From assembly GCA_964430885.1 (NCBI GenBank), contig CAYSHM010000029.1, positions 1-24,000 of the forward strand: 24,000 nucleotides of DNA, in the 5' to 3' direction. Source of the stretch: an uncultured archaeon. Lineage in GTDB: Archaea; Thermoplasmatota; Penumbrarchaeia; JASLWR01. Positions 5,266 through 9,681 of this stretch are shown here, piece by piece. The notes beneath the pieces are model-generated. The model worked only from the letters and a program-made list of their open reading frames with translations. It was not told the DNA's origin and searched no databases. Each line of letters opens with the position of its first letter. Position 1 is the first letter of the stretch. Both the position numbers and the translations under genes were made by a program.

Positions 5266-5976
5266 TCAACATACTGGTATCAAACCCTTGTAGAATATTG
5301 CACCTTCATCAAAACCCATCAGGACCGGATACACCTCTACACCAGAATCAACGGCCTTTCTGAAAACCTTGGCGAAATCGGGGTCAGTGTCCTCCTTAGG
5401 TGCGAAGCAGATCGCATCATCCCGGAATACAAGTATTATCAGAGCCGCTCTGTGGCCTTCCCCTTTTGCCTTTATAAGCTCCTCCACATGCCGCTTGCCC
5501 CTGGTTGTAGGTGCATCAGGGAATAGAGCTCTTCGGTCAATAGCCAATGTACAACCCTTGACCTCCACCCATATATTCTTGCCCCCTTTTATTACCAAAA
5601 AATCGAGCCTGCTTTTACCATAGGTCTGTTCGGGACTACATTTTTCAATTTCCCCGAAAGGACTGATGGTGGCATCGTTCAGGATGGTTTGAGCTATATC
5701 CCGGTGGAATCCGGAATTGACAAGCACCCATTTATCCTCCACCTTTCCAGCAATAAGATCCCATCGGGTCTTTCGATTAGAGTTCTTAGCCTTTCTAATA
5801 AGCACCTGATTCCCTGGACATAGTATCTCCTTAAGACGACCTGGATCCCTGACATGCACCTTTTCTACCTTGTTTGTACCCTCGTCTTCAATATTCACCA
5901 ATCCGAGGAACCTGTTAGGTCGTTCTACAAATACCGCCCGAGCGTCATAATGTATCTCTAACAATTTCCTCTTCAT
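5266..5976 (-). CDS. sfsA: SfsA (sugar fermentation stimulation protein homolog; nuclease-fold DNA-binding protein)
   Basis: 236 aa. The N-terminal FVERPNRFLGLV (RPNRF signature), central WVEVKGCTL and C-terminal DAPTTRGKRHVEEL blocks are typical of the SfsA family. The gene starts only 40 nt downstream of the thioredoxin-like gene on the same strand. Confidence 0.9.
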   Translation of the reverse strand: MKRKLLEIHYDARAVFVERPNRFLGLVNIEDEGTNKVEKVHVRDPGRLKEILCPGNQVLIRKAKNSNRKTRWDLIAGKVEDKWVLVNSGFHRDIAQTILNDATISPFGEIEKCSPEQTYGKSRLDFLVIKGGKNIWVEVKGCTLAIDRRALFPDAPTTRGKRHVEELIKAKGEGHRAALIILVFRDDAICFAPKEDTDPDFAKVFRKAVDSGVEVYPVLMGFDEGAIFYKGLIPVC

Positions 5977-6016: not shown

Positions 6017-6637
6017 TCACCTTCTTCTGGATCGTCGTTCCATTACATAATTGATCACAAGAACTGCTACGAATATCCCAATGAGACCGAATAGTATCCA
6101 TGAGTTGGATTCAAGAGGACATGTCGGTGCGGAAGAAACGGGTGTGTCAGTTGTCATTGCGGTCATGAAATCTCCTGGACCCACATACCCCTTTATCCTG
6201 TTGTATTCCTCCCCGGAGGTATTGATGAAAACAACTGTTGGATATCCTTCCACATCGAACTTTTTAACCAGAGAAGGACTGTCATCACCGTCTATCTTCA
6301 CCGAAAAGAAGTCAACAGCTGTGCTTATTATATCTGGGTTCTTGAAGGTTTCTGCTTCAAGATCTGCACAGAATCCACACCAATCAGCATGAAAATAGAG
6401 TATAATTGGCATATATGGTAGATCAACACCGCCAGGTATATCCTCATATGAATTCCAGATTATATTTTCCGGTGCGGTCTGGTTGAATGAATCCCCAGTA
6501 TTGTTAGTGGTGTTACCATCACTGGCGGCTTCCGACATCTGGGAAATTGGCCCCATACCAAGAAGCATTATGGAAATTAAGACCAAAAATATTGGAAAAA
6601 ATGTTTTCAATGATCTTCCTCTATCAGCATATACCAT
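6017..6637 (-). CDS. membrane-anchored exported thioredoxin-fold protein (DsbD-gamma/Thioredoxin_7-like, WCGFC active site)
   Basis: It has an N-terminal signal or anchor (FFPIFLVLISIMLLGMG) and a linker with N-x-S/T sequons. The Trx fold carries YFHADWCGFCADLEAETF and a cis-Pro at EGYPTVVF. A C-terminal TM ends in RRSRRR. I prefer the ATG at 6637, which lies 1 nt after the upstream TGA (TGAtATG). The longer ORF starting at 6682 would overlap the upstream gene by 44 nt. Confidence 0.75.
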   Translation of the reverse strand: MVYADRGRSLKTFFPIFLVLISIMLLGMGPISQMSEAASDGNTTNNTGDSFNQTAPENIIWNSYEDIPGGVDLPYMPIILYFHADWCGFCADLEAETFKNPDIISTAVDFFSVKIDGDDSPSLVKKFDVEGYPTVVFINTSGEEYNRIKGYVGPGDFMTAMTTDTPVSSAPTCPLESNSWILFGLIGIFVAVLVINYVMERRSRRR

Positions 6638-6638
6638 A

Positions 6639-6887
6639 TCAGCATTCCCCCTGGTCTCTTGATAGATTATTTTCCTCATCATTCCCTATCTTCTCGACCC
6701 CGCAGGATGAAGCACATCTGCTTCCACGGTCGGTATAACGGGACAGAATGAAGGGTACAACATAAGCACTCACAATGAGAAGTAAACCCAAATAATAAAT
6801 GTATTTTATATAGAGTCCCACGATTATAAGCACTATACCTGAAATGAAAAAGATCATTCCCCATCTTGTACATAACGGACATCCCAT
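6639..6887 (-). CDS. Cys-rich two-TM miniprotein (82 aa), family unknown
   Basis: A strong RBS, GAGGTGAT, lies 3 nt upstream of the ATG at 6887. The sequence is MGCPLC, two TM helices joined by a KY turn, then a basic/acidic tail with CASSC and a terminal Cys. Its stop codon abuts the start of the thioredoxin-like gene. Confidence 0.6.
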   Translation of the reverse strand: MGCPLCTRWGMIFFISGIVLIIVGLYIKYIYYLGLLLIVSAYVVPFILSRYTDRGSRCASSCGVEKIGNDEENNLSRDQGEC

Positions 6888-7008
6888 GTTATCACCTCAT
6901 TTATCTCATTCCCATAGCAAGTCAAAATTCCCGGCGTTCATTCTATGCTTTTAATAATTCAAAATAAAACAAGAATATTATGGGCCTCAATTTAATAATT
7001 ATTTGGAT

Positions 7009-7036
7009 GGACCGGAAAGCCCTATCACTCCGGTCC
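7009..7036 (-). terminator. GC-rich hairpin downstream of trx
   Basis: GGACCGGA (7009..7016) and TCCGGTCC (7029..7036) form a perfect 8-bp stem with a 12-nt loop, 13 nt after the trx stop. No strong T-run follows. Confidence 0.35.
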
Positions 7037-7048
7037 ACTCTGATTAAA

Positions 7049-7369
7049 TTAAATATACTTCTCGATCTTGCCCGCCAACTGATCCTTGGACTGAAAACCC
7101 ACGATCCTGTCAACCTGATTACCGCCCTTAATAATTAGGAGGGTCGGAATACTTCGGACGCCGAACTTCATGGATGTGGCCGGATTGTCATCTACATTCA
7201 ACTTTCCTACAACAAGTTTTCCTTTATAATCCTTGGCCAATTCTTCAAGGACCGGACCTATCATCCTGCACGGACCGCACCAAGGGGCCCAGAAATCCAG
7301 CAGTACCAGTTCATTGTCGTTCACTATGCTGTCAAAAGTGGAATCCGTTACTTTAGTAGTTCCTACCAT
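7049..7369 (-). CDS. trxA: thioredoxin
   Basis: WAPWCGPC active site and the cis-Pro motif SIPTLLI. The product is 106 aa from the ATG at 7369. AGGTGATC lies 5 nt upstream and overlaps the arsR stop codon. The GTG at 7378 in the ORF track is less likely. Confidence 0.9.
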   Translation of the reverse strand: MVGTTKVTDSTFDSIVNDNELVLLDFWAPWCGPCRMIGPVLEELAKDYKGKLVVGKLNVDDNPATSMKFGVRSIPTLLIIKGGNQVDRIVGFQSKDQLAGKIEKYI

Positions 7370-7374
7370 TGTGA

Positions 7375-7701
7375 TCACCTATTATCTATCTCCTTCAAGA
7401 ACTCTGTGTCTTTTCGAAGCTGTTCAATTATCACCTGATGCATAATATCCATTGCATCAAGTATCTTTTTGTTCCCGATGCTGTAGAACACATTAGTGCC
7501 GTCCTTTCTAGATCTGACTATCTTTCTATCCCTTAGGAACCCAAGATGCTGGGACATGCTGGGCTGGCTCAACTCAAGCTCTTCGCACAGTTCACCCACT
7601 GACAATTCCCCATTCTTCAAGAGACTAAGTATTCTGAGCCTTATGGGGTTTGTGAACACCTTACAGATATCAGCATGCATCTTCAGTATTGCATCGGACA
7701 T
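7375..7701 (-). CDS. ArsR/SmtB family winged-helix transcriptional regulator
   Basis: ADICKVFTNPIRLRILSLLKNGELSVGELCEELELSQPSMSQHLGFLRDRKIVRSRKDGTNVFYSI is the canonical ArsR HTH region. It has two Cys (ADIC, GELC) but no ELCVCD arsenic-site motif. Confidence 0.9.
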   Translation of the reverse strand: MSDAILKMHADICKVFTNPIRLRILSLLKNGELSVGELCEELELSQPSMSQHLGFLRDRKIVRSRKDGTNVFYSIGNKKILDAMDIMHQVIIEQLRKDTEFLKEIDNR

Positions 7702-8019: not shown

Positions 8020-9681
8020 GTGAATCCGGATATAGAAGAAGAAAATAGAAAGGAAGGTTACGACGATTGGTTGTTACCCGAGGAAACCCGTGAAATGCTG
8101 GTTGAGATGTTCCAAGAACTCAAAGACGATGTCAATCTGGAAGTCTTTTTGAACGATGACAACGAGGATCCTTTCAATCAACTGACCTATCAATTCACAA
8201 GGGACCTGGCTAGGATATCTGAAAAGATAAAGGTCAATGTAAATGACCTGAAAGGCGGAAGTGCAGAGAAATTCCATGTCGAGAGGGGCCCTTCCGTTCT
8301 GATATCTCCTGAAAAATACAGCATAAGGTTCACCGGAGCACCTGCCGGCGAGGAGGGGAAATCATTTCTGAAGGGATTGATACTTGCCTCCACTGGCGAT
8401 AGTGAACTAGAGGTGGCCCAGAGGAAACTGCTGGCCGAACTCAATGAAAAGCGCCAGGCAATGATATTCGTTACTCCGGGATGTCCATACTGTCCGGGTC
8501 AAGTGGTGAATGCCTTCAGAGCTGCAGTAGAAAGACCTGACCTTGTAAAGGCAGAGTGTATTGAGGCCAGCGGGAACATTGACCTGGCAAGGAAATATAA
8601 TGTGGGTGCGGTACCCCATACCGTGATCAATGGAATCACCACCAGCAGAGGACTTGAACCGGAAGATAGATTCATAGAGGAACTTATAACACTTGAGCTC
8701 GAGGAAGACATGAAAAAAGCTAAAGCAAAGCCTTCCCTCAAGGTTCCGGAATCAGGGACCGAAGATGTAGAACTGGTCATCATAGGAGCCGGACCTGCAG
8801 GAATCACTGCGGGAATATATGCAGTGAGGAGCGGAATGAAAGCGGTCATTATTGAAAAGGACAATGTGGGCGGACAGGTGGCCCTGACCCCCGTTGTAGA
8901 AAATTATCCCGGCTTCAAGAACATACCTGGGAAAAACCTCATGGACATATTGAAAGCCCAAGCCCTAGACTATGTTCCCATTCTTGAGAATGAGGGTATT
9001 GAGGAGATCAAAGTGGGTAAAAGGATAGAGGTAATCTCATCCAAGAGACGGTTCCTTTGCGATTCCGTGATCGTGGCCACTGGAGCAGAGCATAGAAAAC
9101 TGGGAGTAAAGGGTGAAGAGCGTTTATCGGGACGCGGGGTCTCCTACTGCGCTACCTGCGATGGTTATCTTTACAGGGGCAAAAAGGTCCTTGTAGTAGG
9201 CGGCGGTGATTCCGCCCTGACTGACTCGCTATACCTGAACAGCCTTGGGGCCAAGGTGCGTATTGTCCATAGACGCGACGAGCTGAGGGGCCAATCCTAT
9301 CTAAGAGAATCAATAGAGAGGGAGAACATACCTGTTATTTGGAATAGTGTGGTGAAACGCATAGGAGGTAAGGATAAGGTTAAGGGAATTGAACTTGAGG
9401 ACACTTCCAGCGGTGCAATCAAGAAGATGTCCGTAGATGCAGTATTCATCTCAGTTGGGTACAATCCCAATAGCCAACTGCTCCAAGATATCGGAGTAAA
9501 GGTCAATGAATACGGTTTTGTCCAAGTTGGTAGAAGATGTCGGACCAATATACCCCGCATCTATGCTGCCGGTGACATCACCGGAGGTGTCAGACAGATC
9601 GTGACAGCGGTCAGCGAAGGGGCTACCGCTGCACTTTCCGCATATGAGAACCTGCATAATCCTTACTGGAAATCCCGCTGA
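8020..9681 (+). CDS. fusion of a protein-disulfide-oxidoreductase (PDO)/AhpF-N-terminal-like double Trx-fold domain to NADPH thioredoxin reductase
   Basis: GTG start with GGAGG 6 nt upstream. The N-terminal 235 aa or so resemble archaeal PDO (IRFTGAPAGEE, IFVTPGCPYCP with Cys codons at 8482 and 8491, YNVGAVPHTVING). The first-fold CxxC is absent. The C-terminal part is TrxR: VIIGAGPAGITAG (FAD), CATCDG (Cys codons at 9148 and 9157), VVGGGDSA plus HRRDELR (NADPH). Confidence 0.9.
   Translation: MNPDIEEENRKEGYDDWLLPEETREMLVEMFQELKDDVNLEVFLNDDNEDPFNQLTYQFTRDLARISEKIKVNVNDLKGGSAEKFHVERGPSVLISPEKYSIRFTGAPAGEEGKSFLKGLILASTGDSELEVAQRKLLAELNEKRQAMIFVTPGCPYCPGQVVNAFRAAVERPDLVKAECIEASGNIDLARKYNVGAVPHTVINGITTSRGLEPEDRFIEELITLELEEDMKKAKAKPSLKVPESGTEDVELVIIGAGPAGITAGIYAVRSGMKAVIIEKDNVGGQVALTPVVENYPGFKNIPGKNLMDILKAQALDYVPILENEGIEEIKVGKRIEVISSKRRFLCDSVIVATGAEHRKLGVKGEERLSGRGVSYCATCDGYLYRGKKVLVVGGGDSALTDSLYLNSLGAKVRIVHRRDELRGQSYLRESIERENIPVIWNSVVKRIGGKDKVKGIELEDTSSGAIKKMSVDAVFISVGYNPNSQLLQDIGVKVNEYGFVQVGRRCRTNIPRIYAAGDITGGVRQIVTAVSEGATAALSAYENLHNPYWKSR

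Follow-up and report, generated by a model that had tools for sequence, protein, structure and literature searches.

The 24,000-nt stretch of contig CAYSHM010000029.1 analysed here (the window), which derives from an uncultured archaeon of the Thermoplasmatota, carries between the gene of a cytoplasmic thioredoxin (Trx) and that of a membrane-anchored, exported Trx-fold protein (the product of 6017-6637, subsequently called the exported Trx) an open reading frame (ORF) of 82 amino acids (aa), and raises the question what so small a membrane protein, with a Cys pair at its very N-terminus, might contribute at this position. The 82-aa gene is real and a member of a rare, unnamed and unannotated archaeal family of two-helix membrane proteins, the link of which to the thioredoxin system is solid. 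Judged by this gene linkage, the miniprotein probably adds a new, membrane-bound component to the thioredoxin system, and the reading we favour, at a probability of roughly 0.45, is that it provides a cytoplasm-facing, membrane-tethered redox or metal centre as a dedicated thioredoxin partner.

A rare family of small archaeal membrane proteins

The elements of the locus on which the argument rests are, in positions of the window:

6639..6887, minus strand: 82-aa miniprotein, founding member of an unnamed archaeal family, with CPLC at the N-terminus, followed by a membrane hairpin of two helices and a tail with Cys on the cytoplasmic side (ORF, homologues, alignment, AlphaFold2 (AF2) hairpin)
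6891..6898, minus strand: Shine-Dalgarno-like GAGGTGAT, 3 nt 5' of the miniprotein ATG (read from the sequence)
6870..6881, minus strand: codons of C3-P4-L5-C6, a near-invariant CPxC, with T7 and G10 following (three alignments)
6753..6767, minus strand: codons of A41-Y42-V-V-P45 at the cytoplasmic end of helix 2 (family alignment)
6702..6716, minus strand: codons of C58 and C62, the CASSC of the tail (family alignment)
6017..6637, minus strand: membrane-anchored exported Trx-fold protein, DsbD-gamma-like, with an alternative start at 6682 (profiles, AF2, Foldseek)
7049..7378, minus strand: cytoplasmic Trx with a WCGPC site (Pfam Thioredoxin, 9.1e-32)

The first-pass annotation, made from the window alone, had proposed an 82-aa ORF with a good ribosome-binding site, which is borne out by the Shine-Dalgarno-like sequence and by conservation in other archaea; as the homologues found there (25-45% identity) conserve the motif, the ORF is not a chance one. 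Six-frame genome searches recover homologues in four other genomes of the same class, word-seeded profile searches gave 17 and then 21 clusters, and an exhaustive hidden Markov model search of 1.84 billion representatives returned only 39 clusters, all of 48-104 aa, among which there are no fusion proteins that would point to a partner. In the family profile search the window protein scores 87.7 bits (E = 3.3e-20). Neither Pfam nor NCBIfam, searched with E up to 10, holds a significant match for the miniprotein, and a profile search of the PDB gave no significant relative, the best being the zinc-binding anti-TRAP (E = 0.038); assignment to a known family was rejected, as Wzy_C, SMR, DUF3784, FeoB_associated and anti-TRAP were all insignificant matches.

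Family members occur in Thermoplasmatota, Altiarchaeota and Woesearchaeota, to which source names add Nanoarchaeota and Methanofastidiosa. Five of the 37 genomes of its class encode the miniprotein, as do 5 of 401 genomes sampled across its phylum; the completeness of these metagenome-assembled genomes is 78-97%, so that absences are to be read as 'not found'. CPLCTK[TE]G[LIV], the commonest motif of the family, occurred at 7 loci when 185,579 species genomes were scanned, 2 in Thermoplasmata, 2 in Woesearchaeota and 3 in Altiarchaeota/Altiarchaeales.

Conservation was counted in an alignment of 36 diverse members with the window protein as reference row, the alignments being shallow and drawn from few independent lineages. 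Y42 and P45 are invariant, and at least 90% of the members share C3, P4, C6, G10 and A41; the motif reads CPxC in 33 of the 36, CLLC in one, and lacks one Cys in two (SPFC, CPTS). The family signature, which the window protein fits, thus comprises a length of 48-104 aa, CPxC-T/S-x-x-G before helix 1, A-Y-x-x-P ending helix 2, K/R-rich termini, and auxiliary Cys placed in the tail or in an N-extension. The AF2 model is a helical hairpin with helices at residues 8-24 and 30-52, and the MGCPLC N-terminus, transmembrane (TM) hairpin and CASSC tail described before are all in place. Of the Cys residues on which the first-pass annotation relied, the CPxC pair stands as near-invariant, but the C-terminal C82 is not conserved.

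The conserved residues cluster directly ahead of helix 1 and where helix 2 ends, and therefore on the same face of the membrane. Since K and R residues average 2.3 in the N-terminal segment and 3.9 in the tail, against 0.36 in the loop between the helices, with type-2 N-extensions (see below) carrying up to 10, both termini are cytoplasmic, in agreement with the earlier placement of both Cys clusters; the same strong bias led to the rejection of a dual topology. Within helices or loop no conserved Cys is found among the 36 members. Of the 36 members, 20 have auxiliary Cys residues, which are highly variable in spacing (2 to 13 residues), in the tail only and 13 in an N-extension only; one has them at both places and two at neither. 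The two placements largely follow two types of protein. Type 1, of the Thermoplasmatota and including the window protein, opens directly with M-x-CPLC and bears between one and three Cys in its tail; in type 2, found in DPANN, Altiarchaeota and Methanofastidiosa, CPLC follows a lysine-rich N-extension, the G-x-T-C of which stands 3-5 residues ahead of it, and the tail is without Cys. Because auxiliary Cys are placed either at one end or at the other, both termini are on one side and would share a single site of three to four Cys (Cys3-4), and this pattern is the strongest internal evidence for a single cytoplasmic Cys3-4 site.

Thioredoxin genes beside the miniprotein gene

Among 19 distinct loci, a Trx-fold gene adjoins the miniprotein gene, or is parted from it only by a small ferredoxin gene, in 14, and is found within approximately 1.2 kb in 16, in at least five different arrangements. 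As the family is rare, these gene-context counts rest on few independent lineages.

In the window all genes at issue are on the minus strand, in the order ArsR-family regulator, Trx, a 160-nt spacer, miniprotein, exported Trx and SfsA. Other loci of this type (1A) vary the theme by a ferredoxin gene between miniprotein and exported Trx (L004, L131), by a ferredoxin gene followed by the contig end (L130), by omission of the cytoplasmic Trx and addition of a DsrE-like gene after the exported Trx (L010), or by ending with the miniprotein (L003). The cytoplasmic Trx, reported before as directly upstream on the same strand, is indeed a conserved upstream neighbour (window, L003, L004, L130, L131, L046, L142), and an ArsR regulator heads the cluster in six loci (window, L003, L004, L010, L130, L131). 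Six loci of type 1B combine an N-anchored, outward-facing Trx of about 150 aa, the miniprotein, a methyltransferase on the opposite strand, an exported Trx of 200-235 aa and DUF6125.

Type-2 loci present a different neighbourhood. Two Woesearchaeota have a 4-nt overlap of the Trx and miniprotein genes; in one of them (L142) the catalytic subunit of ferredoxin:thioredoxin reductase (FTR; catalytic subunit FTRc, PF02943, 3.7e-26) overlaps the 3' end of the miniprotein gene, followed by genes for a CoA-binding protein and a helix-turn-helix (HTH) protein. Altiarchaeales IMC4 has the miniprotein gene between that of a 4Fe-4S ferredoxin, 2 nt upstream, and that of a Trx, 0.9 kb downstream, and an altiarchaeotal metagenome-assembled genome has the order rubrerythrin, miniprotein, ferritin, glutaredoxin (Grx), thioredoxin reductase (TrxR) and rubredoxin. 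A small 4Fe-4S ferredoxin adjoins the miniprotein in L004, L130, L131 and the Altiarchaeales locus L048.

The link of the family to an exported Trx is specific to Thermoplasmatota. The exported Trx, singled out as partner in the first-pass annotation, does not stand as the specific one, the neighbours in Woesearchaeota and Altiarchaeota being cytoplasmic Trx, ferredoxin, FTRc and Grx/TrxR; what stands of that proposal is linkage to Trx-fold genes, exported ones included, with any Trx-fold gene as the general partner. The survey of the gene pair also went against an obligatory association, as the exported Trx has relatives that are not accompanied by a miniprotein, namely in G007, where the gene directly follows a cytoplasmic Trx, and in G012, G002 and G008. 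A metagenome search with YFH[AT]DWC for partners of the exported Trx gave 80 loci, mostly of bacterial periplasmic Trx-like proteins, and no miniprotein.

The exported Trx itself (206 or 221 aa, depending on the start) matches Thioredoxin_2 (3.4e-15), Thioredoxin (6.2e-11) and Thioredoxin_7 of Pfam and, in NCBIfam, the C-terminal gamma region of DsbD and TsoB; the solved structures closest in sequence are PDI a-domains and DsbD-gamma. Its AF2 model, built on 26 sequences, has a mean predicted local distance difference test score (pLDDT) of 83, with at least 95 in the Trx core, and shows an N-terminal helix (13-27), a disordered linker, the thioredoxin fold and a C-terminal helix (179-205). With Foldseek the top PDB matches are the DsbD-gamma structures 1uc7, 4ip1, 1vrs and 2fwg (E about 1e-7, 25-27% identity; root-mean-square deviation 2.0-2.6 Å for the first three), and 2ju5 (DsbH) is matched as well. 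The active-site CGFC (6368-6379) is accompanied by the cis-Pro motif GYPT, the linker holds the sequons NTT/NNT/NQT, and a juxtamembrane Cys-Pro (6116-6121) precedes the C-terminal TM segment (6023-6103), after which the basic RRSRRR follows. The DsbD-gamma likeness, N-terminal signal or anchor, sequon-rich linker and C-terminal TM segment after Cys-Pro were thus correctly perceived in the first reading. The protein is neither fused to nor encoded beside a DsbD-beta/CcdA domain.

A juxtamembrane C-P-[LIV] before the C-terminal TM segment is present in 4/4 exported Trx encoded directly downstream of a miniprotein (window, L004, L010, L131) and lacking in relatives without adjacent miniprotein. 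That TCPLE, TM segment and basic tail represent a generic C-terminal sorting signal was rejected by a genome-wide scan, in which this tail is unique and PGF-CTERM common. Dozens of large predicted surface proteins of the host genome end in (S/T)PGF, a TM segment and a basic tail, and because of these many PGF-CTERM ends the host probably uses anchoring of the archaeosortase A type. One relative of the exported Trx (L026:1366-1944 of G002, a genome of the same family as that of the window) is without the first active-site Cys (EDNSQC) and ends in SGF, a TM segment and a basic tail, similar to PGF-CTERM.

The further features of the locus are:

6947..6972, minus strand: T-rich run at 6960-6972, then A/T-rich, TATA-like ATTATTAAAAGC at 6947-6958 (sequence reading)
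7007..7038, minus strand: 11-bp stem-loop directly after the trx stop codon (in both the minimum free energy and the centroid structure)
7375..7701, minus strand: ArsR-family regulator (Pfam HTH_5), overlapping trx
8020..9681, plus strand: divergent fusion of a Trx-like domain and a TrxR-like flavoprotein (Pyr_redox_2 1.3e-52, Thioredoxin_3 1.1e-16)
5266..5976, minus strand: SfsA, 40 nt downstream of the exported Trx (Pfam)

A single nt separates the miniprotein TGA (6639-6641) from the ATG of the exported Trx at 6637, exactly as annotated before; this start has a purine-rich stretch upstream and gives a typical basic-hydrophobic N-terminus, and from the alternative ATG at 6682 the protein would overlap the miniprotein by 44 nt. 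The TATA-like box lies about 60 nt before the miniprotein ATG, and together with the T-rich run it may constitute a possible terminator plus promoter; given stem-loop, T-run and TATA-like box in the spacer, miniprotein and exported Trx may therefore have a promoter of their own. Overall, the spacer region is no more stable than shuffled sequences (z = -0.48). SfsA does follow at the distance given in the first-pass annotation, but is absent from the related loci compared and is not a conserved neighbour. The flavoprotein fusion is, as context only, a probable source of cytoplasmic reductant.

Several observations on the neighbouring genes may be added. The ArsR regulators of the window, L003, L004, L010 and L131 share an N-terminal H-A-x-x-C-K-x-F, the single conserved Cys of which could serve thiol-based redox sensing rather than metal sensing. 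A conserved 4Fe-4S ferredoxin-like gene with a product of 73-78 aa (L131:3217-3438, plus strand; L004:1222-1443, minus strand; L130:982-1218, plus strand), in L131 missed by the gene caller and read by hand, encodes an atypical first Cys cluster and a canonical second one, CxxCxxCxxxCP. The type-1B block (L009, L011, L025, L132, L133) consists of an S-adenosylmethionine-dependent methyltransferase, a DsbH/Thioredoxin_7 protein, N-anchored and very basic at its N-terminus, and the Cys/His-rich DUF6125; an MFS transporter comes next in the two to three of these loci that extend far enough (L009, L011, L133), and in L011 the thioredoxin gene is apparently split into two ORFs.

A proposed cytoplasmic cysteine centre and its alternatives

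A cytoplasm-facing centre is favoured because all conserved residues, every conserved Cys included, are at the cytoplasmic surface of a protein with N-in/C-in topology. At the inner membrane surface CPxC-T-x-x-G, A-Y-x-x-P and one or two auxiliary Cys would gather in a single Cys3-4 centre. It could work as a redox-active dithiol with a resolving Cys or else bind Zn or an Fe-S cluster, and dimerisation of the miniprotein may complete it. The neighbouring cytoplasmic Trx, fed by TrxR or by ferredoxin/FTR, would reduce the miniprotein or dock on it, and in Thermoplasmatota the placement of the gene in operons with an anchored exported Trx would let the miniprotein support the function of the latter from the cytoplasmic side. 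Redox or metal chemistry and physical contact with a thioredoxin are what we infer from a family, topology, Cys pattern and gene linkage that are directly observed.

Several points weigh against this reading. The family is very rare, as counted above, and 3/19 loci are without a Trx-fold neighbour; two members carry the CPxC pair alone; and the tail is disordered in the AF2 model (pLDDT <50), with no folded metal knuckle predicted.

Alternatively, the hairpin might pack with the one or two TM helices of the exported Trx into a minimal trans-membrane reducing pathway that passes electrons of the cytoplasmic Trx outward in the manner of DsbD-beta/CcdA. Some lineages have the family beside a cytoplasmic Trx and others beside an exported one, and the window, L004 and L131 have it in between, as expected of a coupler; the fold of the exported Trx is closest to that of DsbD-gamma, the domain which takes electrons from the membrane domain; and the juxtamembrane Cys-Pro, confined to the exported Trx directly after a miniprotein, belongs to a tail that is not a general sorting signal in a host using PGF-CTERM. 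Such a relay is possible, yet structurally disfavoured. All conserved Cys are at the cytoplasmic face, followed by K/R, with none in the helices and dual topology excluded, so that a trans-membrane thiol-disulfide relay by the miniprotein alone, as the first-pass annotation had considered, is hard to picture; the sequence offers no evident way to bridge the bilayer.

The electron supply of the host argues in the same direction. The absence of a trans-membrane electron supply, from which a role for the miniprotein had been derived, is true of the window, where there is no CcdA (PF02683) match anywhere, but fails genome-wide: contig 19 holds the sole PF02683 match of the host genome, fused to a different, TlpA-like Trx. 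PF02683 is present in 32/37 genomes of the class, 4 of the 5 with the miniprotein included; of five genomes from other phyla that carry a miniprotein (type 2), three have it too, which makes 7 of 10 miniprotein-bearing genomes overall, and on these counts the idea that the miniprotein replaces a missing CcdA was rejected. So was the miniprotein as a CcdA homologue, hhalign of the family profile against the host's own CcdA domain giving a probability of 0.25% and PF02683 not being matched by the miniprotein even at E = 10. In addition, type-2 members of DPANN and Altiarchaeota have no exported Trx alongside, and exported-Trx relatives persist without the miniprotein, in G007 and the single-contig G012 even with CcdA not detected. 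Because CcdA is widespread and such relatives exist, the miniprotein is neither required by the exported-Trx family nor a genome-level substitute for CcdA. Taken together, we consider the outward relay unlikely.

Concerning other candidates for electron supply, no VKOR was found, and FTRc presence proved uninformative as a discriminator, as 30/37 class genomes have it. Archaeal Trx can be reduced by NTR, DFTR, FFTR or FTR/FDR enzymes (PMC7278568, a review of the classes). The contig 19 protein (L001:1474-3639, minus strand) has at least 721 aa in an open frame of 942 aa and comprises, in this order, an extracellular N-terminal domain, TM helices, a TlpA/ResA-like thioredoxin with WCPGC and the C-terminal CcdA domain, an architecture which recurs across the class in open frames of about 900-950 aa. 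A match to PF13386 (DsbD_2) was rejected as CcdA: the 238-aa membrane protein on contig 7 (L134:1363-2079, plus strand), with a long His-rich loop and an HxlR-like regulator upstream, looks more like a metal transporter of the Ni/Co type. On contig 13 (L146:1173-1845, plus strand) a glutaredoxin-like gene (CVWC) overlaps the start of an FTRc homologue with C-F-C instead of C-H-C as third Cys pair, and the pair looks like a ferredoxin:disulfide reductase-like module.

Slightly less probable again is a purely structural role, in which the CPxC knuckle plus auxiliary Cys, or the two CPxC of a dimer, would ligate zinc (Cys4) as a clasp or anchor without redox turnover, to scaffold or tether, or as a zinc-thiolate switch upon oxidative stress. 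CPxC followed by Gly does resemble zinc-knuckle motifs, with anti-TRAP as the top, though not significant, PDB profile match, and three to four Cys with interchangeable auxiliary positions would suit a ligand set; rubrerythrin, ferritin, desulfoferrodoxin and, in one locus, HSP20 are neighbours related to oxidative stress. No zinc-ribbon model of Pfam matches, however, the second Cys pair is variable or absent, the auxiliary Cys vary widely in spacing (2 to 13 residues), and the tail is predicted to be disordered.

We regard as improbable a CcdA-independent outward reducing route in which the miniprotein, dimeric or packed against the TM helices of the exported Trx, forms the membrane core. 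Cytoplasmic CPxC and auxiliary Cys would then hold a disulfide next to an Fe-S cluster, as in FTR; the ferredoxin, FTRc or Trx encoded nearby would donate electrons to this centre, and the exported Trx would receive them at its juxtamembrane Cys-Pro and CxxC. Least credible of all is the handling of thiophilic metals, Cu(I), Hg(II), Cd(II) or As(III), on the inner side of the membrane under ArsR control in the way of MerF/MerE, for although an ArsR-family regulator heads six loci, the type-2 G-x-T-C before CPLC resembles the GMTCxxC metal-binding loop, a CDF metal exporter (Pfam) is encoded about 1 kb downstream in the window and one type-1B locus has a weak TehB-like methyltransferase match, structural genes of the mer, ars or cop kind are absent from all loci, the CDF gene is not conserved at this place, the H-A-x-x-C-K motif of the regulators suits thiol sensing as well as metal sensing, and thioredoxins, ferredoxin and FTRc dominate the neighbourhood.

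Comparison with known membrane-bound thiol systems

Thioredoxin systems belong to the redox machineries studied best, with few membrane-bound components, CcdA/DsbD, DsbB and VKOR. What is new here is an unannotated family of very small archaeal membrane proteins with a near-invariant cytoplasmic CPxC and a conserved place in Trx/ferredoxin/FTR operons, harboured by strictly anaerobic, mostly uncultivated archaea, reduced-genome DPANN lineages included. If the miniprotein is a membrane client or adaptor of Trx, it would add a new node to the thiol redox control of archaea; were it to couple cytoplasmic and exported Trx, it would represent a new solution to trans-membrane disulfide reduction. 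That the family is also mechanistically new, instead of belonging within the known membrane thiol-redox components, seems doubtful. As a short protein with a clear motif and clear partner genes it can readily be tested in vitro.

With CcdA/DsbD-beta (PF02683) the miniprotein has in common that a membrane protein with Cys next to Pro is encoded beside Trx-fold genes, in the operon slot between a cytoplasmic Trx and an exported DsbD-gamma-like Trx. It differs by two helices in place of 6-8, by Cys at the cytoplasmic surface and not in mid-membrane (TM1 and TM4), and by the lack of a detectable sequence relationship, CcdA moreover coexisting with it in most miniprotein-bearing genomes. The exported Trx, in turn, shares with DsbD-gamma and DsbH the fold (1uc7, 4ip1, 1vrs, 2fwg, 2ju5), CxxC and GYPT, but stands alone, tethered by N- and C-terminal TM segments and equipped with an extra juxtamembrane Cys-Pro.

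The mercury transporters MerF and MerE, at about 80 aa, likewise span the membrane with two helices and expose two Cys clusters to the cytoplasm; they have vicinal CC or CPC inside or next to the helices and are encoded in mer operons along with MerA and MerP. With no mer genes at the miniprotein loci, the likeness in size, helices and Cys is by analogy only. For CCS4/HCF153-type proteins we know of no homology to the miniprotein, and CCS4 is not known to have a Cys motif. They exemplify a small membrane protein needed together with a membrane-anchored Trx-like reductase, in the plastid CCDA-CCS5 pathway (bioRxiv 10.1101/2022.10.14.512171), and differ in being eukaryotic and in acting together with CCDA.

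In concept, the nearest analogue is ScsA of the Salmonella scsABCD operon, a small protein without thioredoxin fold, with a single CX2C near the N-terminus and possibly two TM helices, which is encoded with membrane-bound or periplasmic Trx-fold reductases and tied to peroxide tolerance (PMC10907172). The comparison is one of analogy, with no homology claimed; ScsA is bacterial and has a lipobox-like sequence (PMC10907172).

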